Shown here: positions 20,471 to 60,835 of the stretch, one piece after another
How the letters are laid out: each line of letters begins with the position of its first letter
Numbering within the stretch: the stretch's first letter is position 1
Assembly (NCBI GenBank): GCA_041548485.1
Contig: JBFESP010000004.1
Location: forward strand, 33,319 to 97,318
Source of the DNA: Thermoplasmata archaeon
GTDB lineage: Archaea; Thermoplasmatota; Thermoplasmata; UBA10834
Reading direction: 5' to 3'
DNA length: 64,000 bases
The notes under the pieces: model-generated
Databases searched by the model: none
The model's input: the letters and a program-made list of their open reading frames with translations, nothing else
Told to the model about the DNA's origin: nothing
Made by a program: the position numbers and the translations under genes

Positions 20471-21277
20471 TCACTTCTTCTTACGGACTGGCTTCTGCAG
20501 GAATGTGAGGAACGTGAACACGAACATGATTATGACCCCAACCGTCAGCACCGCCCCGATCGGGTTGCTCTCCTTACCGACGTAGACAGTCATGGTGTAG
20601 ACATTGTTCCCACTGCTGAATTCCACCAGGTCGTCCGCGTCGTCGAGCACCACCGTCACAGTGTGCTCCCCACTGCCGACATTGAGCCAGGTCCAGTTGT
20701 ATGTCAATTCCTTGCTCCCGCCGGCCGGTATGTCGAAGACCCGCTTCCCGAGGTATGTGTCATCGACATAGAACTTCGCTGTAACGTTCTTCGCCTCGAC
20801 CGAGCCCACGTTGTACACGGTGGCCCTTATGATGATCGGGTCCACGACCTTGATCTCGAAGTCTTTCACCTTGTCGACCTCGTCTCCGGTCGCAGGATCC
20901 TTCGAGGTGACATTGATCTTGACCTTGATCGTCTGGTCGGCTTCGCCCGGCATGGTCACATTGAACCTGAACACGCCACTGCTCGACGAGCCCGTGGACG
21001 GCGTCACAGATGAGCCAGTCTTATTGTCGGCCACTATCTCCGCCTTGTATGTGAAGTTGCCCCCGACATCCCCCGCCGGGCCGCCGCTCACCGTAAGAGT
21101 GCATGGGACCTTCTCTAGCTTCGCAGCGAACCCAGGTCCGTCGAATTGCAGCGAGAGGTCGCTGTATGCGCTAGCATTATGCGTGGATGGAACGACCAAG
21201 AACGCGGGGAGGGCGACCGTCAGGATCAGAACGATGGACGCGATGCCACACCATCCGTGACGGCTTCTGGTCGTCAC
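20471..21277 (-). CDS. Membrane-anchored CARDB (Ig-like) domain protein
   Basis: N-terminal hydrophobic signal, ATVYNVG...GEHTVTVVLD...VEFSSGNN CARDB pattern, C-terminal TM plus basic tail; overlaps aglB stop. Confidence 0.75.
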   Translation of the reverse strand: MTTRSRHGWCGIASIVLILTVALPAFLVVPSTHNASAYSDLSLQFDGPGFAAKLEKVPCTLTVSGGPAGDVGGNFTYKAEIVADNKTGSSVTPSTGSSSSGVFRFNVTMPGEADQTIKVKINVTSKDPATGDEVDKVKDFEIKVVDPIIIRATVYNVGSVEAKNVTAKFYVDDTYLGKRVFDIPAGGSKELTYNWTWLNVGSGEHTVTVVLDDADDLVEFSSGNNVYTMTVYVGKESNPIGAVLTVGVIIMFVFTFLTFLQKPVRKKK

Positions 21278-24200: not shown

Positions 24201-27200
24201 TGACCTTGATGGTCGTTCTCTCGAACACCGCATAGTCCTTCGTGATGACCCCGCCGCCCCTCGGCGCGACGATCGTCTCGAAGAGCATCCAGCCGGGGTC
24301 GTCCGTCTCAAGGGCATATGTGCCGGGGATGACCGCTGGGAACGAGAAGCCGCCCGTTGAGTTCGTTACCGTCGAGAGTTCGCAGGCCTTGTCGGTCATC
24401 CTGAGATGGACATCGACCCCCTCCAGCGGCGTTCCGTCAGGGGTGGTTATGTTTCCTATAACGGCTCCTGGCTCGACGGGAAGGTTCGCTACACTATCCG
24501 AGCCGGATGTGACATTGAATTCCTCGGACATCAGCATCTTGAGCCCTGTCAGCTCCGCGTAGACGGTGTACTGCCCCGGGGGCAGGGCGATGCTGAAGTA
24601 CCCTTCCGACAGCTCCGCGGAATGTTCGACGCCGTTGATGTTGTCCCTCGCGTAGACGGTACCTTCCTCGAACGGTTCATCGCTCGTGGTCGTGTAGTTG
24701 CCGTCGAGGTCGACGTCCCAGAACACATCCCCGTTGATCCCGCCGCTGGGCACCACGCAGTCCTTGCTGATTATGTAATCATACTCGCCGTCCATGTCCA
24801 GATCCTGCTTCACCCTCATCGACTGGTCGTCTGTGACATTGACCTCGAAGGCCCCCATCACTTTGCTGCCCTGCAGCTGTACATTGGCCGCGGGACCACC
24901 GGACGATACCACGAGCGAGAGGTTCCCGAACGGTGCCAGGATGGAATACATCCCATCGGCATCGGTGAGGGCCGTGTCGTGCGGGATCCCGTACTCGTCG
25001 AGGATCGTCACCCGCGCGCCCGAGACGACGGAGCCGTCTTCGGTCGTGACAGTGCCGTTCAGATACGCGCCGTGATAGTACTTCAGAAAGACAGTGCCGT
25101 AGTGATACAGAGACCTGGCGCTCACGTCGATCGTCCCATCCACCTCACCGGCCTGGATGCGCTCGGCCAGATTGAGCGCATCTTCGTAGCTGACCGCCTC
25201 CCACGCATCCTGGTGCTGCTGGACCAGATCGGACGGGTAAGGGTTGTAGTATGCCGTCCTGTAGACCACTCGGAAGTGAGTCATGTTCCAGCCAGGCATG
25301 GGCTGCTGAGAGCTGATTGCCCCCGAGTCACCCGGGAGCCCTGTGTTCGCGGTGCCGATGTCGGCGCCGCTGAATCCGCACATCGCCCTGTAGAACATGC
25401 TGTCGTAGAACATGTCCTTGTACTCGATCGTGTAGTCGACGACACGCGTATCCTGCGTTACCATGTCCAGGCTGACGGTGGCGCCCGATTCGGTGACGGC
25501 TTTGATCTCGAAGAAATCGATTGGGACGGAGCCGGTTACGCGTCTGTCCGAGAGCTTCGCAGGGGCATAGAATATGCCCGTGCTCATCGCCGAGTACGGG
25601 AACATTCTCGAGTCGACATTGAAGTAGCGTATCTCCCACCCTAGGAGCTCACACAGGTCGTCATAGAACGACACCAGAGGTTCGACGCCGATGATGGCAA
25701 GCGCCTCACGGCCGGCGACGATGCGCGCGTTTACATCGCTCATGTCGCTCGCCATAGGCCCATACAGATCAGGGTCGCCGAGCACCTCGTTGATGATATC
25801 CTCTCCGGGCCCTGTCAGGATGTGGCTCATCTGGCTGCTCGAGATGCCATATTCGTCGAACAGGTCGACGATGGCGGCCCTCTTGGCCTCGTCCGTGTTA
25901 TGCGCGTGCTGGAGCAGACGGAAGGCGAACAACGCGATCGTGTCCTCCTCAGTCTGCGCCATGATTGCGTTACCCGCCAGCTGATAACCGTTCTGGAAGT
26001 TGTCTGCGACGGTCGGATGCGCCCCCTCCTGAACGGCCTCGAAACCGTAGTCCCACCATGCGACATAGGCCGGGCGGCTGGTCTCCGGATAGATGTCCGC
26101 GTCTTGTCCAGCGAACCAGTCCCATGCAGCAGGATAATACTGGCTGGGCAGAGGCAGCGAGTATCCGAATGCGCCAAGGTACCAGTTAGAGCCGTTCTGC
26201 ACATCGTATCCGGCAGGCCGCATGAACTCGGGCAGACTGTTGTATATCTGCTTGTCGTATGAGCGCTTGGTCTCCGACGGAATCGCAGCATCCACGCTGA
26301 ACCACACGTTCGGTGTGACGATGAAGAATGCGAGAAACAGAACGCCCACGATGTGCCTGATCTTGATGCTCTTCCTGAACACCTGCCTGAACGACCCGCT
26401 CGCGTCCTTGAGTCCCTTCCTGACGCTGTTGAAGTCGAGCTTGTCCACGATCATAAGGAGGACCCAGCCGGCAGCGAGGGCGAATGCGGGGGCGGCGTTG
26501 AACATGAACCGGCCCGCGGATATCGCCATGAATATGGCCGCCGAGAGCCAGGCCACGATGAATATGTATCCTGCCGACGTCTGCTTGGGTATCTTCAGCA
26601 GGGCATAGATGAGGCCTATGAGCGAGAGGAAGAACGTGACCATGCCGAACGACATCGCCAGCTCGCTGAACTGCGGCGCACGGGCCTCGGCGATGGTCGA
26701 GTACAGCTTGTTCTGGACGAAATACCCCTGGCCTGAGATGATGGCCTCGCCGAGCTCGGGGTAGACGGCCATGATGCCCAGCACGCCGACCACTAGTATC
26801 ATGCCGATCGCGGGAAGAGACATCGTCCACGGGTAGTCCCTCGAAATCACGAACAGAAGCGCGAAGAACGACGCCGCTACGAACAGGTATACGGGCACGT
26901 CGAACCGGACCGAGACCAGTGACTGCTCGAAGTAGACCGGGAAGGAGAGCAGGAATCCGAAGGCCATGCAGATCATGACCAGGATGGTCGCGCTGGTCGA
27001 GTCGATGTCCTTGAAGCGATTGAGGAGTATCTGGAGCAGGAGATAAGCCAGGATGAGCACCGCGACATAGGCGAACCCCACCCACGCCATGATGACGCAT
27101 GCGAACGCGGTCCCTGCCAGGAGCGAGTACAGGATCGATGTCTTGCTCTGTGAGAAATAGGCCTGCATGCCGGCCTTGATGCTCGCGAGGCTCCTCCAGC

Positions 27201-27861
27201 TCTCGACCCAACGTATGTGCTGCTGCGATTTGATCGATTTGAGCAGGAAGTAGAACGTGAGGACTATGAAGAACAATATGAAAGCGTCGTGGTCCGCGTT
27301 GGAGAGAACGCTACGCTGCACGTGGGTGGGCATGACCGCGAGCAGGAACGCCGATATCAGACCTGCTCTCTTCCCAAAGGTCTCCCTGCCCAGCATATAG
27401 ACTGGCACTACGGTCAACGCGCCCCAGAAGGCCGTCGACCACACGAACATGAACCCTATGGAGTCGCTGACTGACTCGAACATGTCCGCTGCGACGATCG
27501 CTGGCAGGGCCACGGACATGCTGTAGAACGGCGGTCTGGGGTTCCTCAGGCCCTCCGGGAAGTTGATCAGGGGGTCCCAATACAGGGAATCGCCTGTCTC
27601 GACATGGTAATCGATGAGTCTATACCAGTAGTACGAGTCCGACCCCCCGGAGACGATGTAGTCATTGTCCGCGGAGAGGTCGTAGGCGAAGTACGAACGG
27701 AGGACCAGGGCGAGAAGGAATATGAGGACGAGCATAGCTAGGACTGACCAATTCGCCCTGGACCATCTGCCGAATCCGGTAGGCGCTTCCCCCCCGCGGA
27801 AAACCCTGGATAGAAGCGGCCTAGGAGGATCACCCTTTGTCTCAGCCAACGACTCTTCCAC
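21274..27861 (-). CDS. aglB: Oligosaccharyltransferase AglB/STT3 fused to a long array of beta-sandwich (carboxypeptidase-regulatory-like) domains and C-terminal TM anchor
   Basis: DSYY, DHD, TIAEA and WWDYG motifs in a polytopic N-terminal part; about 1250 aa of repeated G-x-V-T..G...T...G.F/Y beta domains. Confidence 0.9.
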   Translation of the reverse strand: MEESLAETKGDPPRPLLSRVFRGGEAPTGFGRWSRANWSVLAMLVLIFLLALVLRSYFAYDLSADNDYIVSGGSDSYYWYRLIDYHVETGDSLYWDPLINFPEGLRNPRPPFYSMSVALPAIVAADMFESVSDSIGFMFVWSTAFWGALTVVPVYMLGRETFGKRAGLISAFLLAVMPTHVQRSVLSNADHDAFILFFIVLTFYFLLKSIKSQQHIRWVESWRSLASIKAGMQAYFSQSKTSILYSLLAGTAFACVIMAWVGFAYVAVLILAYLLLQILLNRFKDIDSTSATILVMICMAFGFLLSFPVYFEQSLVSVRFDVPVYLFVAASFFALLFVISRDYPWTMSLPAIGMILVVGVLGIMAVYPELGEAIISGQGYFVQNKLYSTIAEARAPQFSELAMSFGMVTFFLSLIGLIYALLKIPKQTSAGYIFIVAWLSAAIFMAISAGRFMFNAAPAFALAAGWVLLMIVDKLDFNSVRKGLKDASGSFRQVFRKSIKIRHIVGVLFLAFFIVTPNVWFSVDAAIPSETKRSYDKQIYNSLPEFMRPAGYDVQNGSNWYLGAFGYSLPLPSQYYPAAWDWFAGQDADIYPETSRPAYVAWWDYGFEAVQEGAHPTVADNFQNGYQLAGNAIMAQTEEDTIALFAFRLLQHAHNTDEAKRAAIVDLFDEYGISSSQMSHILTGPGEDIINEVLGDPDLYGPMASDMSDVNARIVAGREALAIIGVEPLVSFYDDLCELLGWEIRYFNVDSRMFPYSAMSTGIFYAPAKLSDRRVTGSVPIDFFEIKAVTESGATVSLDMVTQDTRVVDYTIEYKDMFYDSMFYRAMCGFSGADIGTANTGLPGDSGAISSQQPMPGWNMTHFRVVYRTAYYNPYPSDLVQQHQDAWEAVSYEDALNLAERIQAGEVDGTIDVSARSLYHYGTVFLKYYHGAYLNGTVTTEDGSVVSGARVTILDEYGIPHDTALTDADGMYSILAPFGNLSLVVSSGGPAANVQLQGSKVMGAFEVNVTDDQSMRVKQDLDMDGEYDYIISKDCVVPSGGINGDVFWDVDLDGNYTTTSDEPFEEGTVYARDNINGVEHSAELSEGYFSIALPPGQYTVYAELTGLKMLMSEEFNVTSGSDSVANLPVEPGAVIGNITTPDGTPLEGVDVHLRMTDKACELSTVTNSTGGFSFPAVIPGTYALETDDPGWMLFETIVAPRGGGVITKDYAVFERTTIKVRVTLDGSPVPYAPYSLTNVYYQPDSLSGLTDKYGWVEVEVPRGYWTLYSIYPTGDVDYAGFASIDTYSQSSASGTVPLEQSFVVKISCRTPSGSLVKQTPVIFVADDGARITFMTNTLGEMEGRLPAGNYDVMYWAIAGNGVYSGSMTIDSDVTGLRLYAEDAVVASGYLWTDGDSSGSMGADEASPYTLMRATDTYGRTYYFRSGDDSLYRMMIPEGSRIYVSLGEPGYSSWNFPTLLGDEVKNLTLLAVPDPVTVTGRVTADGVGVRGIPIVLHPKLLSLDSVTVETGAGGYFTVSVPPSEYTVVIDQDYGLIPGVRLQHESEEVISPSGEALNLDISAITRVEVYGNVFGAADDISVSISGPENVTTEVTLYSYSAWVQPGVYHIHASGTTGASLFVGVLQADVSPDSRQFDMTLSKAHNVSGVAHIGSAPVTEAVEVTATAVGGAQVVTVSSTTGAFSLEVPAGDYEVSFLLEETVSVDGRTLYVEYVASELVSVTSSDIVLTPYLEMRLDNTTFSGVVLGPDGLPTRAQITLTPNTNAGLGAVVYTDSSGGFSAQVQPGEYTILVKRLQDQRVFLGTVDLARNSPRVMDVTLSEGKYLSGRVTASDAGFASTVAISSGDARTEVLSDAQGYFSVLVPSGSYVLSSEFERTEAGMTIGYSATTPVEVGTYDTYVDLALDRQNTRSVAASWNASVALPAAPGETVTYSFTIENTGNIGDDYSCSYAGTEFEVVFVPETQFIDFGTNGNTAMVVAHVTVLDAAPAGNTSVPVLVRSLSSSVARADLPLVVKVQPVYSADFTVSDEGDAVSSGTARTKITVLNSGNTEAVFGIEISNLAVLNEHGWDARLTYLDSDDAVEEMTLEMEGTIDLYVEYTAIRTDPDPTSEATVSVWSVDDPGQASLVSVPILLPDVSIGPGGLEVERDDISYDYDATNLYVNIGLVLSIGGLVSMFLIMRRRKGLGGLRKKRGEKQ

Positions 27862-46709: not shown

Positions 46710-47516
46710 CTATCGATGCAGGGCCTTCATAAGATGCCTTGAGAACTCCTGCTCGAACTGGCATTTCTGGAGGCGGTCCTCGAAGACCCTGCGCACTGAC
46801 GCCACCGCCTTCGTGTCGGCCGGGAACTCGACGCCGCACTCCACATCCATGAGCAGGAGGAACTCAGCAGGTGCGAGGCCGATGTGGCGGGGGGGCCTCG
46901 CCGCTTCAGGGCCGATGCACTCCTCGTCGATCGCCCCGGCACTTCCGGCGTCTATCATCCAGACGATCCGTCTCACCATGTTCCACAGGTAGCTCTCAGC
47001 TTCGAAGTCAACGACGATGAACTGACCCGCGTCTGAGACCTCGATCGAATCGATCGTCCTGGTCGGGTCGCGTTCGTCCTTCCTTGAGAAATCGGAGAAG
47101 TCGTGGGTGCCCTCGAAACGCTTCGCGAGCATCCGCATCAATCCTACGTCCTGGGCGTCCCTACGCAGGTAGTACCTGTACCATCTCCGACGTGCCCACC
47201 TTGGATTGAAGTCCTCCGGGACCTGAACCGCTGAATAAGTCCATAGGTCCTTCGCCTGCGAGTTGACCGCCGAGCAGAGCGCCCTAAGAGGGAAACCGGT
47301 CGTGAACGATACCACGTTACAGACGGCGCTGACGCCCCTGTCCGTCCTGCTCGAACTCCGCAAACGCGCGTCCTTCGCGGATTCGACGGCATTCACGGCT
47401 ACGAGCGCGTCGATGAGTGCGCCCTCGACCGTTCTCTTCCGAGGCTGCCTCTGATAACCGAAGAACTTCGAGCCATCATAAGCTAGTTTGACCGCAACCC
47501 GCGACTCCTGAGGCAC
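46710..47516 (-). CDS. truA: tRNA pseudouridine(38-40) synthase
   Basis: AYDG..F.GYQRQP, SRTDRGVSA, GTHDFSDF, YLWNMVR. Confidence 0.94.
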   Translation of the reverse strand: MPQESRVAVKLAYDGSKFFGYQRQPRKRTVEGALIDALVAVNAVESAKDARLRSSSRTDRGVSAVCNVVSFTTGFPLRALCSAVNSQAKDLWTYSAVQVPEDFNPRWARRRWYRYYLRRDAQDVGLMRMLAKRFEGTHDFSDFSRKDERDPTRTIDSIEVSDAGQFIVVDFEAESYLWNMVRRIVWMIDAGSAGAIDEECIGPEAARPPRHIGLAPAEFLLLMDVECGVEFPADTKAVASVRRVFEDRLQKCQFEQEFSRHLMKALHR

Positions 47517-47570
47517 GGCCAGGACAATCCTACTACAGAGTTAAATATCTGCGGAATCTGTCGTACGGCC

Positions 47571-48296
47571 GTGCCTTCCATCAGGATCGTCCTCGTCGAG
47601 CCGTTGCACGACGGTAACGTCGGAGCAATCGCGAGAGCGATGAAGAACTTCGGCCTGGAGGAACTTGTTCTCGTCAGGCCCTGCGCCGTCGGGGAGGAAG
47701 CGGTGAAGCGGTCGATGCACGCGGTCGATGTCCTCAAGAACGCGCGAACTGTCTTCACCGAGGAGGAGGCGTTGGAAGGGGCGGACTATGTTGTCGCTAC
47801 CTCCGGTATCGACACCTCCAACGACAAGAAGTTCCCCCGGATATCGATGGTCCCCGAGGCATTCGCTGAGAAGGTGAAGGACTTCGGCGGGACCGTTGCG
47901 ATCCTGTTCGGAAGGGAGGATTTCGGGCTCGACAACGACCTCGTCAAAAGGTGCGACTTCCTCGTGACGATCCCCGCGAACCCACTGTATCCCATAATGA
48001 ACATCAGTCACGCGGCGGCCGTGCTGTTCTATGTGCTTCACTCCCGCGACGCTGTGAGGCTCGGGCCGAACAAGGCGTCCGGGATGGAGGTCGAAAAACT
48101 GAACGAGTACTTCTCAAGACTACTCGACGTGATCGAGTATCCCGAGCACAAGAAGGTGAAGACCTGCGTGATGTTCAGGAGGCTCATGGCAAGAGCGATG
48201 CCTTCCACCTGGGAGTTCCACACGCTCATGGGTATCCTGGACGGGGCGATAGATGCGGGTGAGTCTGGCGCGGAGCAGGACGGAGGCAAGGAATGA
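47571..48296 (+). CDS. TrmJ-type tRNA 2'-O-methyltransferase (SPOUT)
   Basis: GNVGAIARAMKNFG, LFGREDFGL, YPIMNISHA. Confidence 0.92.
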   Translation: MPSIRIVLVEPLHDGNVGAIARAMKNFGLEELVLVRPCAVGEEAVKRSMHAVDVLKNARTVFTEEEALEGADYVVATSGIDTSNDKKFPRISMVPEAFAEKVKDFGGTVAILFGREDFGLDNDLVKRCDFLVTIPANPLYPIMNISHAAAVLFYVLHSRDAVRLGPNKASGMEVEKLNEYFSRLLDVIEYPEHKKVKTCVMFRRLMARAMPSTWEFHTLMGILDGAIDAGESGAEQDGGKE

Positions 48297-48412
48297 AACC
48301 TCCTCATGCACCGACCGAGACTGTTTAAGCGCGAAGAAAATTGTTGCGCCCCCGGGGAGTTGTTGTGGGGGCGCGTGTTTGCTGTGTTGTTGTGGGGGGA
48401 GGAACTATTGGG

Positions 48413-49495
48413 TCATCCTGACACTCTGGCGAACGAATCCCGTCTCGTTCCGACGGCTTCACAACACGACCCGTTCCAAACGGTCGCGTCGTCCATTGAA
48501 GGCACGCATGCGTAGTCCGGTAGATAGGGTGGCTTCACCCCGGTCACTATCGCCATCAACTTGATTGTGCTTCTCAGATCGGCGTCGATCCTCGCGCCGA
48601 GCTTGATGTGGGCCTCGTCGCTGAGCCTCTTTGTTACGCCGTTCAGCACCTCGTACGCCTTTCTGAGAGACAAGGACGGTCCACCGGTAATGTGAATCAT
48701 CGCGCCAGAGGCGCCTTCGAAGTCGATGTCAAGGAGAGGGTTGGTGACCGCCTCCATCACCACCTTATCGGCGTCCTCGTTCTCGGCATAAAGCACGGTC
48801 GAGGCACCGCCCTGGATCATGATGTTGCGGAAGTCGGCGAAGTCTAGGTTGATCATGCTGGTCTGGCAGATCGTCTCGGTTATACCTCTCACGACTTCGA
48901 CGATAAGCTGGTCCATGACCATGAACGCCTGTTCGACTGGCAACTTGGGGACTATCTCCAGCAGTCTGTTGTTGTCGAGCATGATGGTGCTGTGTGCGTG
49001 CTCGCGCAACTTGGACACACCCCTGTAAGCCGTCTTGAGGCGGCTCTTCTCTATGTCGAAAGGGAGGGTGACAAGCGCGACGGATACCGCCCCGTGTCTG
49101 CGAGCGAGCTCAGCGACCACCGGCGCCGTCCCCGTTCCCGTGCCACCACCCATGCCAGCAGTTATGAAAACGATGTCGTAAGGCTTGACCGCAGCCTCGA
49201 TCTCGCCAGCGAACTCGTAAGCCACCTTCTCGCCCAGCTCAGCGTTTCCACCTGTCCCGTATCCTCCGGTCGACCGCTCGGCCAACAGTAAGCGCTTGTC
49301 CGCCTTGACCTGCGCTAGATGATACTTGTCCGTGTTCATCGCGATCGTGTCTATTCCATCGAGACCGACCCCGTTAATCCTGTGAACGCTGTTGGACCCG
49401 CCTCCGCCGCAGCCGACGACGCATATCTTCGGAGCAAGATGTGCCTCAAAATCGCGCTCGCTCTCAAGAGCTTCCTGGAGGAGCTTGCTGAGCAT
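48413..49495 (-). CDS. ftsZ: Cell division protein FtsZ (FtsZ2-like)
   Basis: VGCGGGGSN, NTD, GMGGGTGTG, NLDFAD, HITGGP; downstream of a cdrS-like gene; start ATG 49495. Confidence 0.9.
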   Translation of the reverse strand: MLSKLLQEALESERDFEAHLAPKICVVGCGGGGSNSVHRINGVGLDGIDTIAMNTDKYHLAQVKADKRLLLAERSTGGYGTGGNAELGEKVAYEFAGEIEAAVKPYDIVFITAGMGGGTGTGTAPVVAELARRHGAVSVALVTLPFDIEKSRLKTAYRGVSKLREHAHSTIMLDNNRLLEIVPKLPVEQAFMVMDQLIVEVVRGITETICQTSMINLDFADFRNIMIQGGASTVLYAENEDADKVVMEAVTNPLLDIDFEGASGAMIHITGGPSLSLRKAYEVLNGVTKRLSDEAHIKLGARIDADLRSTIKLMAIVTGVKPPYLPDYACVPSMDDATVWNGSCCEAVGTRRDSFARVSG

Positions 49496-49586
49496 CTCAA
49501 CAGCTCCGTTTCGAGCGCTCACGCTCATGCGTACACACATGCGTGGCCAACTTGCATCCCATCCCGCGTATGCCCTCGCGACGCCC

Positions 49587-49901
49587 TCACTTCTCCAATC
49601 CTTCGATCGCCTCTGCGAGCCTCTTGCGGATGTATTCGCGCACCGCATTCCTGATTGCATCGTCGACCGATATCGAGTCGCCATCCTGGACGAGCTGCTT
49701 CAGGTTCACGACGTTGCCCTTCGGAAGTTCGACCGTCACCTTCTCGATGTACTCAGGGGTGAACTCCCCGTCCACGAAACGGTCTATGGCCGCTCTGACG
49801 GCATCAGAAAGCGTTGAGAACCTTCCTTGGTCGACCAATGCCTGGAGCGCGTTGATTCGTTCGTGTGGCAACCGTATTGTGACTCTCTCCGATTCGACCA
49901 T
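49587..49901 (-). CDS. CdrS-like ribbon-helix-helix regulator with two tandem RHH domains
   Basis: ERVTIRLP...LVDQG...SDAVRAAI repeated as EKVTVELP...LVQDG...DDAIRNAV; directly upstream of ftsZ2. Confidence 0.85.
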   Translation of the reverse strand: MVESERVTIRLPHERINALQALVDQGRFSTLSDAVRAAIDRFVDGEFTPEYIEKVTVELPKGNVVNLKQLVQDGDSISVDDAIRNAVREYIRKRLAEAIEGLEK

Positions 49902-49914
49902 CTGGCCGCACTCC

Positions 49915-49985
49915 TTCGTCCGACACTTGAGGGCGTTTCGTCAGACAATTGTCATTAACGTTTAATCGATATTTATACCTTTCTA
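49915..49985 (-). promoter_or_regulatory. cdrS-ftsZ2 promoter with repeated motif near the start site
   Basis: Minus-strand AGAAAGG-TATAAATA (BRE/TATA, about 49970-49985); plus-strand TTCGTC(C/A)GACA at 49915-49925 and 49937-49947. Confidence 0.6.
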
Positions 49986-50051
49986 GGCCGTGGCATTGTT
50001 AACTTGAGTATGATGATTCCGGCCAGCTGCGTAGGACGCCAATCTGACGAT

Positions 50052-50813
50052 TCAATCAATGTCCACGATGACCCACGTGTCCTTTCCAGTTAGCGCTTCA
50101 GTCCTACCACCAATTAGACCGCATGTCTTGGGCAGAACCGAATTAACCACCTTGCCTCTACTGAACGAGGCTTCGTTGTGGACGTTCAATGCTTCTTTGA
50201 GTCGTTCGACTTCCCTGGTGAATGCTCTGCTAACCCTTGTCTTGCCCTGAGTATCGCGCCACACGTCGAATGGCAGAATCCACGCCAAGTCGAGAACTCC
50301 TGGTTCGAACCCGAGTTTCTTCTCTTCTTCTGTTCTCTGCGCTAGAACGTCCTGCATCCATTGAGGTGCCTTCTCTTCGTTTGTGTAGCGGCGACAGGGA
50401 GTTTTGTCAAATCGGGCAGCGTAAGTTTCTCCAGCAAGGATTGAACTGCGTGGAATTCCCGCAGCCGCGAGCAACTCCAGTGCATCCTTCCTGACATCAT
50501 CGTTGTTCACAAGCACCGTCATCGAGTTGAGCCATAGGTCTTTGCACCCAGTTTGATTGAGGAAGCTCTTCACTGAATTCTTCGAGAAGGAACCATGCTT
50601 CCGAAGGTTGTAGTTTAGATCCAAGTCTCGGATGCTACGTTCGCAATGACTTAGATACCTTACTGGCTGAGGGTGACGGAGATTGTCCGATTGTCTGTTG
50701 CGTATTGCCTCCAGCTGTATCAACTGATTCTCCTGGATGTACGCATCCACGACCCTCTTGTAGGAACATGTCTTGATGTACGCGTAGTATCTCGAGTCTC
50801 TGATTTTGGCCAT
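50052..50813 (-). CDS. Hypothetical protein (253 aa), cargo of insertion cassette
   Basis: Long ORF, GAGGGGG SD-like sequence upstream; no recognised motif. Confidence 0.7.
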   Translation of the reverse strand: MAKIRDSRYYAYIKTCSYKRVVDAYIQENQLIQLEAIRNRQSDNLRHPQPVRYLSHCERSIRDLDLNYNLRKHGSFSKNSVKSFLNQTGCKDLWLNSMTVLVNNDDVRKDALELLAAAGIPRSSILAGETYAARFDKTPCRRYTNEEKAPQWMQDVLAQRTEEEKKLGFEPGVLDLAWILPFDVWRDTQGKTRVSRAFTREVERLKEALNVHNEASFSRGKVVNSVLPKTCGLIGGRTEALTGKDTWVIVDID

Positions 50814-51074
50814 ACAACCCCCTCTTCAGAGATAGCCCTCATCGCGGAGCCATGATTGTGGCTTACGTCTTCAGAGACTTCTGGTGGTGAACTCGCCTTT
50901 CCGCGCAGCACTAGCTACCTTGGCCGTCGAACATCCATTTCGGAGATGTCCGCTGAACCATACATAAGTAAACAGAGTTCTGATTTTTGCATTTGTTTAA
51001 ATCCGATTAAGCCGCTTTGGCTTGGGGGGCTACAGACCGATTGAATGGTTTGAACCCCATGTAGGTGTGCGGAG

Positions 51075-52229
51075 ATGCATAATAATGCGAAGAAAGTGTG
51101 CCTTGTGGTAACCCTGAGCGCCGCGTTGATGGTGCCGGGGCTATTCGTAATTCCGAACGCCGCGGGGGAACCAGTTACCTGGACCTTAGCGTTATACGTG
51201 AATGGCGACAACAATCTCGAGGATGAGTGGGATGGAACTAGCCTTCCACTCTTGCTCAATCTTCCGGCAAATTCTGACATCAACATTGTGGCAATGGTTG
51301 ACCTGAAATCAACTGATGGCACAGACCTAGTTGAAATTTCTGGAAGTAGCTGGCAGGTTGTCGACAGTTACCCAGAGAAGAATTTTGGCGATGGAGCAAC
51401 CTTGCAGTGGTTCCTGAGCGAAGTCTCCGGTCTCTATCCATCCGAGATGTTATCGGTGACTATCTGGAACCATGGAAATGCCTGGAAAGACGTCAGCTTT
51501 GATGACACTTCGTTCGACAGGATGTATATGCCGGAGATGAAGGCAGCAATCGAGAATGCAGGCGTTTACATAGACGTCCTGTCGTTCGATGCCTGTAGCA
51601 TGGGAAATATCGAAGTCGCGTACGAGGCTTACACAACTGGGTTGGTCACCTACATGATAGGTTCTGAGGAATCCGTTCCATTCGACGGATTTCCCTATGA
51701 CTTCATGTGGACACCAGTAGCTCTTGATTCATCAAGAACCCCGACCCAGGTATCCGTGGACATGGTAAATGGCTGGGGACAGTACTACGACAACACTACC
51801 TTTAACACCGTGGGTCTCTCCGCAGTAGACGTGACGAGCATTGGTGAATCGATAACCACCTTCGAGACATGGAGTGGTCTCATGCACGACAACCTCGGCG
51901 CCTATGCTAGAGTGTATAGGGATGCTCTGAAGAGCGCGTACATTGCGTGGGGGACGAAATATCTGGTGGACATAGCTGATCTGGGAGACACACTGCTAGC
52001 CGACAGCAAATTCTCCAACGCGGCCCTGAGAAGTGCCACCACGGCTATGGTCACAGCAGTAGATGATGCGGTGTTGGCAGTTCACTCCTGCTCCGCGCTG
52101 CCAGATGCCAGAGGACTTACGCTGTGGTGGGGTGTAAAGGGCGACTATAGCTATTATGGGCCTTTATACCCGGAGATCCAGTATGCTATCGACACGGGCT
52201 GGGATGACTTTCTGGCGGACTACAACTAG
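51075..52229 (+). CDS. Clostripain-like cysteine peptidase (C11), secreted
   Basis: Signal peptide, WTLALYVNGDNNL, NFGDGATL, WNHG (His), FDACSMG (Cys), EVAYE, GSEE. Confidence 0.88.
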   Translation: MHNNAKKVCLVVTLSAALMVPGLFVIPNAAGEPVTWTLALYVNGDNNLEDEWDGTSLPLLLNLPANSDINIVAMVDLKSTDGTDLVEISGSSWQVVDSYPEKNFGDGATLQWFLSEVSGLYPSEMLSVTIWNHGNAWKDVSFDDTSFDRMYMPEMKAAIENAGVYIDVLSFDACSMGNIEVAYEAYTTGLVTYMIGSEESVPFDGFPYDFMWTPVALDSSRTPTQVSVDMVNGWGQYYDNTTFNTVGLSAVDVTSIGESITTFETWSGLMHDNLGAYARVYRDALKSAYIAWGTKYLVDIADLGDTLLADSKFSNAALRSATTAMVTAVDDAVLAVHSCSALPDARGLTLWWGVKGDYSYYGPLYPEIQYAIDTGWDDFLADYN

Positions 52230-52245
52230 GGCCAGCTGAGAACAA

Positions 52246-52270
52246 GTGCTCGCCCTTGCTGGGCGAGCAC
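52246..52270 (+). terminator. Perfect hairpin after the peptidase gene
   Basis: GTGCTCGCCC-TTGCT-GGGCGAGCAC followed by T-rich GCTTTCCTTATTTTT. Confidence 0.5.
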
Positions 52271-53121
52271 GCTTTCCTTATTTTTGCAGCATGGATGACC
52301 TTCACCAAACGGAAGCCGATGTTTCAGGATCAGGCTGTTCTCTCGCTGTAAATGCGGGTCATTTTGGCTCGAAAGAGGGCGATTTCGATAGCCGGAGACT
52401 GATTTCGGAGGATTTCCTTGAATCCTCCCCAAAAAGAAGACCCCGGTTCCCAAGGCGACGCCCAACGCGGTGCCCATATGCGCTTGTCTCAAGGAGGAGG
52501 AGAGATTACATTGAAAGGAACCGGGGTGAGCTGCGACTGATCGTCAACCATGTCAGCTCTTGTGCATCCCTCGACCACTATCCTCCTAGTCAGGCGACAT
52601 GTTTTAGGCATATTTCTACTCCATTGCTGAATTCTTGTCATTCTGCCTCGGAAGAGGTCGAGTTCAGTTGGCCCAGATACTAATTTCGGATACTCCGCCC
52701 GAAAGACCCGCTTCGCCATCGTTCTTCGCACTAGCTACGTCAGTTGTCAGACATCCATTTCGAAGATGTTCGCTGAATCATACTTAAGTTAACAGAGCCC
52801 TAGGCCGTGGTTCTGGAACGCCATCGGGTGGTCCCCGTCCGACGTTTTTCGCTGTGAATCTTCGGGTGGTGGCGAGCTTCAGAAGCTCGTGCCACTTGAA
52901 CCCTGGCAGGGCGGCGAAGAATCTGATGCTAGAGAAGAAGTAACCCGACACCAGATTACGAGGGGTGACTGGGTGGAGACCGCACCCCCCGGGCCTGTCG
53001 GGAGGCCCGATACTGTGAGTATCACACCCCCAACGAACAACATCAGGCTCGATTCAGATAGGAGGCTCGCAGCCTGAACCGAAACCATGATTTGCACCGA
53101 GTACGCTAACTGGCGGCGCTG

Positions 53122-54180
53122 ATGAAAACGGAAATCGAACGGGTGGTTGAGGAGTCGTCTAGGAAGCTCTTGCAGACATCGACCCCCCCGATCAAGTATT
53201 GGCTTCTGAGCGACGTTATGCGGAGGGCCCCAGACGACATAGCGTTGCAGCAGACGATGAAGGAATGCGAAACCTACCCTCCTCGTCTCAGACTCCTTAA
53301 GAAACTGCGGGAGGACGGAACCTGGCCGATAACCCGCCAGAGGGAGCTCGCAGAGGAGCGGGGGCCCGGCCCCCCGATAGGATGGACTTACACGACGATG
53401 CTGAGGAACCTGTACACGTTAGGAGATTACGTCACAGGTAAGGAGGAGGGCAACGTCAGGGCGGCCCTGGAACTCATCCTCAGCTGGCAATCCGAGAACG
53501 GCCACATCCCGGGACCCACGACCACCGCGTTTCCGGAACCGCACTACAACGGCTTCGCCCTCAGGAACCTGAACCAGTTCCGCTTGGACAGGGACCCGCG
53601 CACATACAGGCTCGAGCAATGGCTCGTCAGGATGCAGCGTCCCGACGGCGGCTGGAGCATACCGTACATACAGGATGTCCGCTACCTTCCTAGGTACAGG
53701 CACATGCGCATGAAAGACTTCATGGCGCTCATACAGAGCGATGACCGGCCACCGCACGACCCGAAGGAGCACGGACACATTCCGAGCTGTGTCTGGAGCA
53801 CCCTTGCAGTGCTCAGAGGGTTCTGCTGGAGCCCGTCCATGAGATACAGGAAGGAGATGAAGCGAGGAGCCGATTTCGTCCTCGACAGATTCTTCAAGAG
53901 GAACTATCACGCGTCATTCTATCTATCGGAGAAGAACTGGACGACCCTGAAGTACCCAACCTACTTGGGGAGCGGGTTGAGTGCGTTGGAGGTGCTTGCG
54001 TCGATGGGGTACGGATCCGAGGACGCACGCATGGAGGGGGCCGTGGGATGGCTGCTCAAGGCCAAATCCAAGGACGGTTTCTGGTACAGGTCCGACAGGC
54101 CTAGTCCTGACAAGGACCGATGGATAACGCTCTGCGCGCTCGCTATACTGGCGAGGTATGCAGGAAAGTACGGTCATTGA
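53122..54180 (+). CDS. Prenyltransferase/squalene-cyclase repeat (alpha/alpha toroid) protein, function unknown
   Basis: QW-like repeats LREDGTW, SWQSENG, MQRPDGGW, KSKDGFW. Confidence 0.7.
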   Translation: MKTEIERVVEESSRKLLQTSTPPIKYWLLSDVMRRAPDDIALQQTMKECETYPPRLRLLKKLREDGTWPITRQRELAEERGPGPPIGWTYTTMLRNLYTLGDYVTGKEEGNVRAALELILSWQSENGHIPGPTTTAFPEPHYNGFALRNLNQFRLDRDPRTYRLEQWLVRMQRPDGGWSIPYIQDVRYLPRYRHMRMKDFMALIQSDDRPPHDPKEHGHIPSCVWSTLAVLRGFCWSPSMRYRKEMKRGADFVLDRFFKRNYHASFYLSEKNWTTLKYPTYLGSGLSALEVLASMGYGSEDARMEGAVGWLLKAKSKDGFWYRSDRPSPDKDRWITLCALAILARYAGKYGH

Positions 54181-54240
54181 GCGGGGCGGTCGGCGTTCCA
54201 TGATTAACTGTATATATCACAGGTTGTTTGGCTATCAGAG

Positions 54241-55002
54241 ATGTCGACACCAACCGACCAGCCAGATTCGGCCCTCGCGGGCGGGCCGGCGCTCGAGGTT
54301 GTCAACCTCGTAAAGGACTACGGAGGGTTCAGAGCGCTCAAGGGCGTTTCGTTCACAGTCGATGATGGCGAGGTCTTCGGCCTGATCGGTCCGAACGGCG
54401 CGGGCAAGACGACCGCGCTCAGGATCATATCCACGATACTCCGGATAACTTCGGGTCACGTGAGGATGTTCGGGACGGACATAGCTGAGAGACCCCACGA
54501 GGCGAGGAAGATCCTCAGCTACCTTCCGGAGGATGCGGGAGCGTACAAGAACCTCACGGGCAACGAATACCTGGCTTTCATCGCGCGCTTCTTCTCGCAG
54601 AGCCGTGAGGGCGTGAGGAGAATCGTGTCGAGGGGTGTCGAGATAGCGGATCTCGGCGACAGGATGGACGACAAGGTGGATACCTACAGCAAGGGCATGG
54701 CACGGCGTCTTCTCGTCGCACGGGCTCTCATGATAGAGCCGCGCGTGGCAATCCTGGACGAGCTGACATCGGGCCTAGACGTCATCAATGCCCAGGAGAT
54801 TAGGAGGATAGTGAAGGATTCGTCCAGGCGCGGCACGACAGTGCTGTTGTCGTCGCACAATATGCTCGAGGTGGAGCTGATGTGCGACCGGATCGCGCTG
54901 ATCAACGACGGTGAGATAATCGAAGTGGGTACACCTGCCGAGCTCAAGGCGAAGCACAGCGCACAGAACATCGAAGAGGTGTTCATGAAGGTGGTCTCAT
55001 GA
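54241..55002 (+). CDS. ABC transporter ATP-binding protein (NatA-like)
   Basis: GPNGAGKT, YSKGM, ILDELT, SSH. Confidence 0.92.
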   Translation: MSTPTDQPDSALAGGPALEVVNLVKDYGGFRALKGVSFTVDDGEVFGLIGPNGAGKTTALRIISTILRITSGHVRMFGTDIAERPHEARKILSYLPEDAGAYKNLTGNEYLAFIARFFSQSREGVRRIVSRGVEIADLGDRMDDKVDTYSKGMARRLLVARALMIEPRVAILDELTSGLDVINAQEIRRIVKDSSRRGTTVLLSSHNMLEVELMCDRIALINDGEIIEVGTPAELKAKHSAQNIEEVFMKVVS

Positions 55003-58293: not shown

Positions 58294-58478
58294 GGCGTTG
58301 AGAGATGAAAAAACTGTTGAACGCACCACCGCCGGGGCCGATGCTGGTGAGACCGCGCTCGGAACAAGATATTTATACTCACAGATTGATATATAAAATG
58401 CGCGCGGCGCGCGCGAGGGATGCACTTAAACGGAGCGAAGTGCATCATCTCCAACGCCTCAGGGATGGTGGCTGTATC

Positions 58479-59600
58479 ATGATGAGATCGCTTGTCGAAG
58501 ATGCGCTGGCACGGGAGTCTACGATGGATGCTAGCAGCGGACCAGAGACCGCTGCGTTCCAGGACCAGAGAGTCGATCAGGAACTCGAACAGATTCTCCG
58601 CGGCCTGAAAACGAACATAAAGATAATCGGAGTAGGAGGAGCGGGAACGAACACGATTTCCCGTGTCCACGACGAGGGCATAATCGGAGCTGAAGTGTTC
58701 GCGGCGAACACCGACGCGCAGCACCTCCTCGTACTGAGGGTACCGCACAAGATACTCCTTGGAAGGAGGGTCACCAGAGGACTCGGCGCAGGCTCGCTCC
58801 CGCAGATAGGGGAAGAGGCCGCGAGAGAGGCTGAGGACGACCTGAAGAAGATCCTCGCTGACACCCACATCTGTTTCGTCACGTGCGGGCTTGGAGGCGG
58901 CACTGGCACGGGTGGAGCGCCCGTCGTCGCCCGCATGGCGAAAGAAATGGGCGCGCTCACGATCTCGATTGCCACACTGCCCTTCGGAGGCGAGGGGCGC
59001 ATGAGGATGGAGAACGCCGAGTGGGGCCTCGAGAGACTCAGAGATGCCTCCGACACAGTCATAGTCATCCCGAACGACAAGCTCCTAGACCTCGTACCGA
59101 GGCTGTCACTCAACGCAGCGTTCAAGGTCACGGACGAGGTGCTCATGAGGTCGATCAAGGGGCTGACGGAGGTCATCACCAGGCCGGGACTGGTCAACCT
59201 CGACTTCAACGACGTGAAGACCATCATGAAGGGCGCGGGCGTCGCGATGATGGGGTTGGGCGAATCGGACGCACCCGGAGACGAGAGAATCACGGAGGCC
59301 ATCGACCAGGCGATCAACTCACCACTGCTCGAGGTGGACATAAGCGAGGCGAACGGTGTGCTCGTGAATGTCATCGGCGGGACCGATATGACCATCTCTG
59401 AGGCAGAGAGGGCCGCCGAGGAGATCCAGACACGCGTGGGCCAGAACGCCAGAATCATATGGGGCGCTGCGGTCGACCCTGCACTCGACAAGACCGTCAA
59501 AATCATGCTCGTCGCGACGGGCGTGAAGTCGAAGCAGATACTCGGGAAGCAGGGAGAACGGCGGCTCAAGGGCATCGGCGAGGTCGAACTGGTGCGCTGA
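58479..59600 (+). CDS. ftsZ: Cell division protein FtsZ (FtsZ1-like, copy A)
   Basis: GVGGAG, NTDAQHL, GLGGGTGTG, GLVNLDFND, ARIIWGA; start ATG 58479/58482. Confidence 0.95.
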   Translation: MMRSLVEDALARESTMDASSGPETAAFQDQRVDQELEQILRGLKTNIKIIGVGGAGTNTISRVHDEGIIGAEVFAANTDAQHLLVLRVPHKILLGRRVTRGLGAGSLPQIGEEAAREAEDDLKKILADTHICFVTCGLGGGTGTGGAPVVARMAKEMGALTISIATLPFGGEGRMRMENAEWGLERLRDASDTVIVIPNDKLLDLVPRLSLNAAFKVTDEVLMRSIKGLTEVITRPGLVNLDFNDVKTIMKGAGVAMMGLGESDAPGDERITEAIDQAINSPLLEVDISEANGVLVNVIGGTDMTISEAERAAEEIQTRVGQNARIIWGAAVDPALDKTVKIMLVATGVKSKQILGKQGERRLKGIGEVELVR

Positions 59601-59728
59601 GAATCGTCGTCCACCGTGCCGAAACTTTTAAGAGACCCAAGAAGCTACGGTCAAAAAGCCGGCGGGCCCGACCCGCAACTGGCATATTATCATCTAGTTA
59701 GATGGTTAATCCACCTTGGAGGTCTTAC

Positions 59729-60835
59729 ATGAAATCGCTCATCGACAGTGCCCTTGCGAACGTGGAGGAGGAGCACACGAAGAGTTCTCCGGACGCCATT
59801 CGAGCATTCACAGCGGAAGACGAGGAGCTGCAGAAGATACTGCACGACCTCAGAACGAACATAAAGATCATAGGATGCGGAGGCGGTGGATGCAACACCA
59901 TCAATCGCCTGGCGGAGGCGGGCATAGTCGGGGCCGAGCTCTACGCGGCTAACACGGACGCGCAGCACCTGCTCATGACGCGGTCGCCTCACAAGATACT
60001 CCTGGGCAAGAGGGTCACCAAAGGCCTCGGCGCTGGTGCGCTCCCACAGGTGGGTGAAGAGGCTGCCAGAGAGGCGGAGGAGGAACTCAAGATCGCCCTG
60101 AAGGATGCCGATGTCGTCTTCGTGACTTGCGGCCTCGGAGGAGGGACCGGGACCGGCTCTGCACCACTAATCGCCCAGATAGCGAAGGAGCAGGGGGCAC
60201 TCGCGATATGCATGTGCACGTACCCGTTCAGGGCGGAGGGAGTGATCAGAGCGGAGAACGCCGACTGGGGACTGGACCGCCTGAGGAACGTGGCCGATAC
60301 CGTTATAGTGATACCCAACGACAAGCTGATAGACCTCGTTCCGAAGCTGTCCCTGAACGCCGCTTTCAAGGTGGCGGATGAGGTGCTCATGAGAGCGATC
60401 AAGGGCATCACCGAGATCGTGACGAAGCCCGGGCTGGTGAACCTGGACTTCAACGACATAAAGACCGTCATGAAGGCGGGCGGCGTCGCGATGATAGGGC
60501 TGGGTGAAGCTGACGACGACGACAGGGCCGTGACGGCCGTGACCGAGGCCATCAACTCACCACTGATCGATCTCGACATAAGCGAGGCGACCGCAGCGCT
60601 CGTGAACGTCACGGGCGGCTCCGGCATGACGGTCAAGGAGGCGGAGGAGGTCGCGCAGATCATTCAGTCCAAGATCAATGCCAACGCGAGGATAATCTGG
60701 GGCGCCGCGGTCGACGAGACGCTCGATGAGACCATGCGCGTGATGGTCGTCATAACCGGTGTCAAGTCCAAGCACATATTCGGCCCGCCAAAGGGAAAGA
60801 AGGGTCAGGAGCTGGGACTAGACTTTATTAAGTAG
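59729..60835 (+). CDS. ftsZ: Cell division protein FtsZ (FtsZ1-like, copy B)
   Basis: Same motifs, C-terminal LGLDFIK; precedes secE-spt5-rpl11; GGAGG SD before ATG 59729. Confidence 0.96.
   Translation: MKSLIDSALANVEEEHTKSSPDAIRAFTAEDEELQKILHDLRTNIKIIGCGGGGCNTINRLAEAGIVGAELYAANTDAQHLLMTRSPHKILLGKRVTKGLGAGALPQVGEEAAREAEEELKIALKDADVVFVTCGLGGGTGTGSAPLIAQIAKEQGALAICMCTYPFRAEGVIRAENADWGLDRLRNVADTVIVIPNDKLIDLVPKLSLNAAFKVADEVLMRAIKGITEIVTKPGLVNLDFNDIKTVMKAGGVAMIGLGEADDDDRAVTAVTEAINSPLIDLDISEATAALVNVTGGSGMTVKEAEEVAQIIQSKINANARIIWGAAVDETLDETMRVMVVITGVKSKHIFGPPKGKKGQELGLDFIK

Follow-up and report, generated by a model that had tools for sequence, protein, structure and literature searches.

We examined a 2.8-kb block in a 64,000-nucleotide window (the whole stretch of DNA analyzed, from contig JBFESP010000004.1 of a Thermoplasmata archaeon), for which a preliminary description had proposed a transposase-free cargo element with 23-bp inverted ends and a 9-bp target duplication around two divergent genes, one for an orphan protein (P0001, minus strand) and one for a secreted protease (P0002, plus strand). 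Window positions 47500 to 55000 were compared between the window's genome (G000; 1.69 Mb, 90.75% complete) and 11 other genomes of the genus (G001 to G011). The block at positions 49992-52799 is a real, compositionally foreign insertion without a recombinase gene. By direct reading and a repeat search, the 23-mer GGCATTGTTAACTTGAGTATGAT was located at 49992-50014 (the left end, LE or LE-A) and its imperfect reverse complement at 52777-52799 (20 of 23 positions complementary), and the 9-mer CTAGGCCGT was found in exact form (9/9) at 49983-49991 and 52800-52808, each copy adjoining one inverted end; the direct repeat amounts to 11 nucleotides (nt) (CTAGGCCGTGG) when the GG in common with the left end is included. 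Of 3038 pairs of exact 9-mers lying 300 to 6000 nt apart in the window, a single one had inverted arms of at least 20/23 just inside, and 100 Markov-1 randomizations yielded 0 cases at this cutoff (22 cases at the laxer cutoff of at least 15/23). The proposed ends and duplication thus stand, and the two divergent open reading frames (ORFs) of the block indeed match no transposase family in Pfam.

Inside the block, the right-end sequence recurs as a third copy (50908-50977 versus 52728-52797, 83% identity over 70 nt), and for this reason the block is a composite of two units that have a right-end (RE) module of about 80 nt in common. Unit 1 (988 bp) consists of the left end, P0001, and the degenerate internal right end, RE', the 23-mer of which has 5 mismatches to the right-end 23-mer; an equal module precedes the protease gene in G005. 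Unit 2 consists of a TATA-like box, the protease gene, a conserved noncoding "right part" (about 290 nt), and the right-end module. The features of the locus are the following.

48413..49684, minus strand: FtsZ paralog of the left flank (Pfam Tubulin, 2.1e-37; FtsZ_C, 9.1e-22; listed ORF of 423 amino acids [aa])
49587..49901, minus strand: ribbon-helix-helix (RHH; CopG-type) gene, first of the RHH-FtsZ operon (Pfam RHH_1, 2.9e-08)
49970..49979, minus strand: TATA-like box GGTATAAATA of the RHH-FtsZ operon, 3 nt from the 9-mer (read from the sequence; putative promoter)
49983..49991, no strand: left 9-mer CTAGGCCGT, target duplication or crossover core (direct reading)
49992..50014, plus strand: left end LE-A, 23 nt (direct reading and comparison among genomes)
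50015..50051, plus strand: left subterminal region (GATTCCGG ... GTAGGACG ... TCTGACG), partly kept after LE-A in relatives
50052..50813, minus strand: P0001, 253 aa, cargo of unit 1, member of a small ParB-associated family
50908..50979, plus strand: RE', degenerate internal right-end module with the terminal 23-mer ACCATACATAAGTAAACAGAGTT at 50957-50979
50996..51002, plus strand: TATA-like box TTTAAAT of the protease gene, 16 nt past RE' (identical sequence in G005; putative role)
51075..52229, plus strand: P0002, 384 aa, clostripain-family (C11) cysteine peptidase, cargo of unit 2 (PF03415, 3.3e-36)
52433..52717, plus strand: "right part," conserved noncoding body common to a gene-free unit of G001 and copies in G011, G005, and G007
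52718..52799, plus strand: right-end module RE, about 80 nt, of which the 23-mer at 52777-52799 is the terminus
52800..52808, no strand: right 9-mer CTAGGCCGT (direct reading)
52809..53070, plus strand: right flank GGTTCTGGAACG..., seemingly the interior of an older unit (judged by eye)
53122..54180, plus strand: right-flank gene, 352 aa (weak SQHop_cyclase_C match, 4.8e-05, below the curated cutoff)

The GC content of the block (50.8%) was the lowest of any 2.8-kb stretch in the window, in line with the earlier remark that it is the most AT-rich multigene block there (next lowest nonoverlapping stretch, 55.1%; window mean, 59.0%); set against the genome, the values were 50.9% and 58.9%, respectively. 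GC content at third codon positions (GC3) was 0.57 to 0.60 in the P0001 and protease genes versus 0.70 and 0.76 in two clostripain paralogs; it was 0.76 to 0.78 in the right-flank genes, though the FtsZ gene adjoining the block was also low (0.59). In a second assembly (Logan contigs of runs X1 and X4, possibly the source samples), positions 49300 to 53500 were contained entirely in one contig of 9393 nt with 1 letter different, and since this independent contig spans the stretch, the junctions are not an artifact of a single assembly. Runs X1 and X4 each gave one contig across the stretch and no alternative form; contigs drop rare variants and are hence uninformative on mobility. No structured RNA was matched in Rfam at an E value of ≤1 between 47 and 55 kb.

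The left flank was present in 12 of 12 genus genomes, and the core of the left end was found in G000 and 9 of the 11 others, at the FtsZ locus wherever its context could be read; P0001 was encoded in none of those 9. The 23-mer of the left end was identical in G011, G010, G002, G005, and G008, differed by 1 mismatch in G007, and lay at a constant distance from the RHH promoter sequence TATTTATACCTTTCT, which was itself invariant in 7 of 7 aligned genomes. A second left-end type, with its first 15 nt in common with LE-A, was present in G001, G004, and G009. Across the 7 genomes, 22 of the 23 columns of the left end were invariant, compared with 2 of 9 in the 9-mer and 15% in the next 60 nt. The search for an empty site in relatives, which the preliminary description had suggested, led to G003, where 82 nt separate the RHH promoter from the 352-aa gene and neither end is present, and in G006 (contig C97) only GGCAT remains of the left end; because of these two genomes, the left end is dispensable for the RHH-FtsZ operon. 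The locus is a genus-wide insertion hotspot just upstream of the RHH-FtsZ promoter. Matches to the core outside the genus (G048 and G015:C9) and at G005:C67:7745 were not beside RHH-FtsZ genes and were taken as chance.

The 9-mer is species specific, yet it is the same or one base off at the junctions within each genome. It reads CTAGGCCGT in G000, CTAAACCTG in G007, CTAGACCTG in G005 and G001, CTAGAGCTG in G008, G009, and G004, CTGAGCTCG in G011, CTAGCTCTG in G010, and CTAGCGCTG in G002. G000 carries its version twice, G005 has CTAGACCTG three times in addition to the one-change variant CTAGACCTT, and G001 has CTAGACCTG and CTAGACCCG, one base apart. In G011, CTGAGCTCG precedes the left end at 167 kb and is found a second time behind a right end at 1207 kb. 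The single contig G011:C1 carries the LE-bearing left flank at about 167 kb and the right flank, with its right end and 9-mer, at about 1.19 to 1.21 Mb, both ends on the same strand, an arrangement that could fit a large inversion of the chromosome, one of its breakpoints being in the hotspot.

Right-end modules were aligned with MAFFT (13 copies from 5 genomes); one copy, G005_c, was misplaced by the program, leaving 12 usable copies, all of which align over about 80 nt and share their final base, in ...AACAGAGCC or a close variant. These 12 copies are followed by the species 9-mer in 6 cases, by CTGATTTTT in the case of RE' of the window, and by unrelated sequence in 5. At an E value of ≤0.001, the module was detected in 6 of 49 genomes of the order, with 1 to 5 copies each; no consensus structure was obtained on either strand (RNAalifold), and there was no Rfam match. 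One solo right end (locus L031, G005:C67, 4461-4614) begins 5 nt past a tRNA-Arg(TCG) gene. Complete head-to-tail junctions (right end, 9-mer, left end) were present in G001, in G005, and in contigs of the unrelated sediment run X6; the junction is a 13-7-13 palindrome, GTTAACAGAGCCC-N7-GGGCATTGTTAAC, and folds as a hairpin.

Small units with matching ends were also found at this locus in relatives, about 110 to 520 bp in length and either gene free or with one small ORF. That of G001 measures about 460 bp and has no gene (second left-end type, right part, and right end), G005 has a unit of 510 bp with an ORF of about 50 codons, and units of about 110 to 120 bp were found in G005:C56 and G004 (delimited by eye); units in G001 and G005 were flanked by 8/9 repeats. 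All complete units seen in the genus lie at the RHH-FtsZ locus, and the copies elsewhere are solo right ends, not dispersed units. The right part was 88%, 79%, and 75% identical to that of the window in G001, G011, and G005, respectively. A small gene within it was considered and rejected, as the peptide frame looked conserved but substitutions were spread evenly over codon phases (9/6/6 and 8/11/11). That the ends might be a shared promoter-upstream element was likewise rejected: RE' and the left end lie 12 to 16 nt before a TATA-like box, and the other right ends are without one.

The listed ORF of the FtsZ paralog overlaps the RHH gene, and its true start therefore probably lies further downstream. 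FtsZ/tubulin-family genes are present three times within 12 kb (window positions 48413-49684, 58305-59600, and 59702-60835), and the hotspot-side copy is headed by the RHH gene, with two GTCNGAC palindromes in its leader. On the other side of the block, the 352-aa gene, whose orthologs adjoin the left flank in G003 and G007, is followed by an ABC transporter (Pfam). The right flank itself resembles, by eye, the sequence after LE-A in G001 (GGTTCTGGGTAG...) and that after the right end and 9-mer in G005 and G011, and its stretch 52809-53070 is missing from the empty site of G003; judged by these resemblances, it looks like an older unit minus just its 23-nt left end. Further away, a very long ORF (2195 aa) occupies 21274-27861 on the minus strand of the window.

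P0002 belongs to the clostripain (C11) family, in agreement with the proposed protease cargo: residues 41 to 334 aligned with positions 2 to 304 of the 359 of PF03415 (Peptidase_C11; E value of 3.3e-36). Its N terminus is hydrophobic, and the motifs WNHGNAW and FDACSMG are visible, which we take to hold the His/Cys dyad. Paralogs in its own genome were 63, 57, 45, 43, and 38% identical, and the 1.7-Mb genome holds a large clostripain family (C1:67579-68733, C5:62474-63628, C7:91787-92905, C17:1004-2152, and C34:632-1705, in addition to weaker matches); clostripain paralogs adjoin end motifs in G010, G011, G005, and G007 as well. Orthologs of P0002 were found in G005 (95% DNA identity, same locus) and in G007 (89%, another locus). 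The G007 locus was considered as a moved copy, and this was dropped, as end motifs are missing at that locus. In G000 as in G005, the protease gene is flanked by direct copies of the right-end module, and the protease gene together with RE' is 95% identical between the two genomes, versus 88% and 85% for the flanks.

P0001 had been called an orphan. This holds in that it matched no family in Pfam, NCBIfam, PHROG, or PADLOC, but a small family does exist: 4 relatives were found among 5.8 billion clustered proteins and 24 representatives by a profile search of 1.84 billion, with lengths of about 160 to 260 aa. Among genomes, P0001 was found in 1 of 41 (that of the window and none of 40 relatives) and in none of 400 other genomes of the phylum, and single proteins of the family had no match in viral or genome contigs. 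In the metagenome loci examined for context (L004 to L008, of which L004 and L005 are near duplicates), a ParB_N gene precedes the P0001 homolog in three of five (L005, L006, and L008); in the remaining two, the contig ends within the upstream ORF. The gene ahead of P0001 homologs is usually of a ParB_N/HTH(/RHH) type, and in L004 a DUF3800 gene and an MT-A70 methylase gene come after the homolog. The ParB_N domain is typical of plasmid partition proteins. Locus L006 reads ParB_N gene, P0001 homolog, 112-aa ORF, LE-like motif (17/23), RHH gene, and FtsZ gene, in the order and orientation of the window, and its RHH and FtsZ proteins are 64% and 51.5% identical in aa sequence to the pair in the window.

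An AlphaFold (AF2) model of P0001 built with 27 sequences reached a pLDDT of 89.6 and a pTM of 0.86 (with 5 sequences, pLDDT was 33.4). Its predicted fold had no match at an E value of ≤0.001 in Foldseek searches of PDB and BFVD, the best VIA-align Z score was 3.7, and ESM Atlas matches scored 0.80 and were uninformative. We also considered P0001 as the missing transposase, as unit 1 resembles an insertion sequence (IS) in its 988 bp, one ORF, and inverted ends. This was rejected as unsupported: D175 and W247 are the only invariant residues across the 27 sequences, which leaves one invariant acidic residue, there is no fold match, and no flanking inverted repeats of at least 14 nt were found in the four metagenome loci scanned, of the five. 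A role in defense was not adopted either, PADLOC having given no match save that of the ParB_N domain to a methyltransferase model. We read P0001 as cargo of a plasmid-like element and not as the mobilizing enzyme.

Regarding the mobilizing enzyme, the preliminary description had proposed that a cognate IS at another place in the genome moves the block in trans, had likened the ends to those of IS5 (IS903 group), IS6, and IS1595 (ISPna2 group), of which the IS903 type has ends of the form GGC...TGTT, and had recommended a search for the end motif; movement by such an IS was not supported, and the search uncovered neither an autonomous IS nor other cassettes in G000. With up to 3 mismatches, the motif was found in G000 at the two ends only, and a looser BLAST search added the internal copy only. 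PF01609, PF00665, PF12762, PF13610, PF00239, and PF01548 had 0 matches in G000, while control genomes were matched in each search; no IS6, IS1595, rve, IS110, or serine recombinase was thus detected there. IS4/IS5-type DDE transposases (PF01609 and PF13586) were found in 0 of 12 genus genomes, three of which are single contigs, and the end sequences had no exact match in viral contigs. Tyrosine recombinases were encoded three times in G000, on contigs C6, C9, and C1, none of which is that of the window, and one of them beside tRNA-Ile; integrase fragments are common across the genus, beside none of the ends seen. A phyletic link of the right ends to the two non-Xer integrases of G000 was sought, but homologs or fragments of these occur in 10 of 12 genomes, with or without right ends, and the comparison is uninformative. 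The integrase gene abutting tRNA-Ile (G000:C9; locus L048, 1320-2346) encodes 316 aa, and C-terminal fragments of it (66 to 88% identity) are scattered over G000:C32 and several genus genomes, which suggests repeated integration and decay of another element family. No transposon-associated nuclease gene was detected in the genome other than two TnpB-type (OrfB_IS605) ORFs, at G000:C16:19857-20159 (412 aa) and C1:77570-77878 (378 aa).

The units are a low-copy family without recombinases of their own; their left and right ends are distinct and conserved, and they recur at a single chromosomal site, where a short host sequence is repeated at the junctions. They are best read as site-specific, nonautonomous cassettes moved in trans, for which a recombinase of the attachment-site (att) type is likelier than an IS transposase. 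Conservative att-type recombination at the 7-nt spacer is the mechanism that we put forward tentatively, as a possibility that falls short of being probable; it is favored because the site is fixed, the junction has the 13-7-13 layout, one solo end lies beside a tRNA gene, and tyrosine recombinases are the sole classical recombinases found in the genome. Units would enter by site-specific insertion catalyzed in trans, and a full site would consist of the right arm GTTAACAGAGCCC, the 7-nt spacer, and the left arm GGGCATTGTTAAC. The host site would supply the same spacer, and an inserted unit would read flank, 9-mer, left end, ..., right end, 9-mer, flank, and later units could enter at either spacer copy and so build arrays. 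The 55-nt palindromic junctions would tend to lose one arm, which would leave solo ends such as that on the right side of the window. Candidate enzymes would be the tyrosine recombinases encoded elsewhere in the genome, and P0001 and the protease would be cargo. Insertion appears to have occurred separately in several lineages, since both 9-mers of G011 depart from the 9-mer of G005 by the same five differences, and two copies that predate the split of the lineages could not have acquired these independently.

Tyrosine-recombinase integrative elements (lambda-type attP × attB recombination and tRNA-adjacent islands) have a fixed site, a short identical core, and tandem reentry at attL or attR. 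The units resemble them in the one chromosomal site, the identical core on both sides, the element arms inverted around a spacer of about 7 nt, and the solo end by a tRNA gene; the same locus is used in G000 and 9 of the 11 other genus genomes, with a core that is identical or one base off within each genome and differs between genomes. They differ in that no integrase was found in or beside any unit, in the 23-nt arms with a module of about 80 nt on one side only, and in that no circle or excision product was seen: junctions of right end, 9-mer, and left end exist but are perhaps tandem, and the empty site is that of another species, G003, only. Further observations weigh against att-type recombination. 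Inverted ends of 23 nt next to an exact direct repeat of 9 bp are what textbooks give as the mark of DDE transposition; the arms on the host side of the left and right junctions are unlike the element arms; and beyond right ends at other loci the sequence is unrelated and holds no 9-mer (5 of the 12 usable copies). Neither a recombinase nor a transposase was found among the 21 ORFs that were scanned from 39 to 64 kb of the window, nor any recombinase among 40 ORFs around motif copies in G011, G010, G005, and G002, and neither an excised circle nor a same-strain empty allele was seen, the material searched being contigs only. The 7-nt crossover is drawn from the symmetry of the junction and nothing else, and in G000 a symmetric C...G pair is broken (C...T).

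A serious, if somewhat unlikely, rival is a classical IS-derived nonautonomous element, that is, a miniature inverted-repeat transposable element (MITE) or a mobile insertion cassette (MIC), of which MIC231 of Bacillus cereus is an example. A DDE transposase with a strong target preference would have generated the 9-bp duplication, the composite would have arisen when the distal right end was used in place of the degenerate internal one, and the transposase would be encoded on an unassembled part of the genome (which is 90.75% complete), on a plasmid, or by a virus, or would be extinct. Inverted ends with an exact 9-bp direct repeat are what such an element would leave, and three further units have flanking repeats of equal length (8/9 or 9/9); the aligned right-end copies share a sharp terminus, the difference between left and right ends is itself conserved, G001 has a unit of about 460 bp that carries no gene, and tandem arrays would be expected if each duplication regenerated the preferred target. 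Objects of this kind form an accepted class: MICs, MITEs, and solo inverted repeats are described as IS-related and activatable in trans by a cognate transposase (PMC3129680). The block shares with MICs and MITEs the inverted ends, the target duplication of fixed length, the lack of a transposase inside, and passenger genes in some copies only, and in the terms of the ISfinder authors it is formally a MIC and its small relatives are MITEs (PMC3129680). Of what is expected of the class, a cognate IS was not found, and neither were dispersed copies. The block is unlike MICs and MITEs in that no cognate IS or DDE transposase was found in G000 (no rve, IS1595, IS6, or IS110) or, for the IS4/IS5 type, in any of the 12 genus genomes, and in its very low copy number, the ends recurring nowhere else in G000 and right-end modules in few genomes of the order. 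Nearly all copies lie at one locus, the 9-mer marks the same site each time, and viral contigs hold no exact match. What stands of the proposed IS-derived gene-capture unit is a bounded, foreign, transposase-free insertion with inverted ends, a duplicated target, an empty site in a relative, and gene-free relatives; what it had overlooked is the two-unit composite, the left end at this locus in 9 of 11 genomes without P0001, and a 9-mer that is locus specific and reused.

It is unlikely that the arrangement is a relic without present mobility, in which the left 23-mer would be a host site, for example, the operator of the adjacent RHH protein, and the right-end modules would be old repeats, with segmental duplication, homologous recombination between repeats of about 80 to 430 nt, and gene conversion keeping the 9-mers alike. 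The near-invariance of the left end at a fixed distance from the RHH promoter fits a host site, as do the GTCNGAC palindromes that recur in the RHH leader, after the left end, and inside the right end, but G003 (and, but for 5 nt, G006:C97) keeps the RHH-FtsZ operon and its promoter without the left end. Old repeats would account for the protease gene between direct right-end copies in G000 and G005, for a right flank that lacks exactly the 23-mer, and for the failure to find an enzyme. Local conversion, however, hardly explains why two G011 9-mers 1 Mb apart share their five differences from the G005 9-mer, direct 9-mers with inverted ends are not the product of duplication or inversion, and neither the foreign GC content of the block nor a protease cassette 95% identical to that of G005 between flanks of 85 to 88% is expected of a relic. 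Chance repeats or an assembly chimera are highly improbable in view of the 0 cases in 100 randomizations, the recurrence of the ends in 9 of the 11 other genus genomes, and the contiguous second assembly.

Att-type recombination, the reading preferred above, has a bolder form, which is speculative and improbable as a whole: an archaeal cassette-capture platform, in which a fixed site (9-mer and left 23-mer) beside the RHH-FtsZ operon would receive circular units with the right-end module of about 80 nt, stacked by a host recombinase acting on the 13-7-13 site while the 7-nt spacer evolves freely. Such a platform would be integron-like in function with unrelated sites and enzyme, would shuffle secreted clostripain and plasmid-derived genes between species of sediment archaea, and might use the RHH protein, with GTCNGAC palindromes in its leader as in the element ends, as an accessory factor. 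Integron gene cassettes have been reported in Archaea (PMC9668308). An integron has its IntI gene beside attI, and its cassettes lack promoters, point the same way, and end in folded attC sites. Integron cassettes share with the units described here single-gene units with a recombination module at one end, stacking by a fixed platform site, and exchange of cargo between species, and differ in that here no integrase lies by the platform, the right end is without a conserved hairpin, the genes are divergent, the protease gene has a TATA-like box of its own, and the junctions are mostly half sites; on these points the block is not an integron.

Tn7-like transposons use one defined site and orientation and have a short duplication and asymmetric ends with subterminal repeats. 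The block is like them in its single target position and orientation, short duplication, and asymmetric ends, and unlike them in that TnsA-, TnsB-, and TnsC-like genes are absent and the units are nonautonomous and 0.1 to 2.8 kb in size. The pdif modules of Acinetobacter carry complete 28-bp Xer sites at both ends. In the units described here, by contrast, each border is a single arm together with the spacer, and G003 and G006 lack the site; because it is absent from some genus genomes, it is not the chromosomal dif site. On these points the block is not a pdif module. What brings pdif modules close is that these recombinase-free gene modules of Acinetobacter plasmids have short inverted recombination sites served by a host recombinase in trans (PMC6449649).

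If the family is the decaying remnant of MITEs or MICs of a lost IS, the finding is ordinary. Irrespective of how it moved, P0001 defines a small ParB-associated family of proteins of about 240 to 250 aa, and its confidently predicted fold had no match in any structure library that was searched. Should the site-specific reading be right, the locus would represent a compact, enzyme-less cassette system in uncultured marine-sediment archaea, and the 55-nt palindromic site and the host half-site would be defined substrates with which the responsible archaeal recombinase could be found. It would also offer the protease a route between species, the cassette being 95% identical where flanking genes are 85 to 88% identical. 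Clostripain-type peptidases are among the extracellular enzymes that benthic archaea use on detrital protein, and exchange of clostripain genes, if true, would bear on the spread of protein-degrading capacity.

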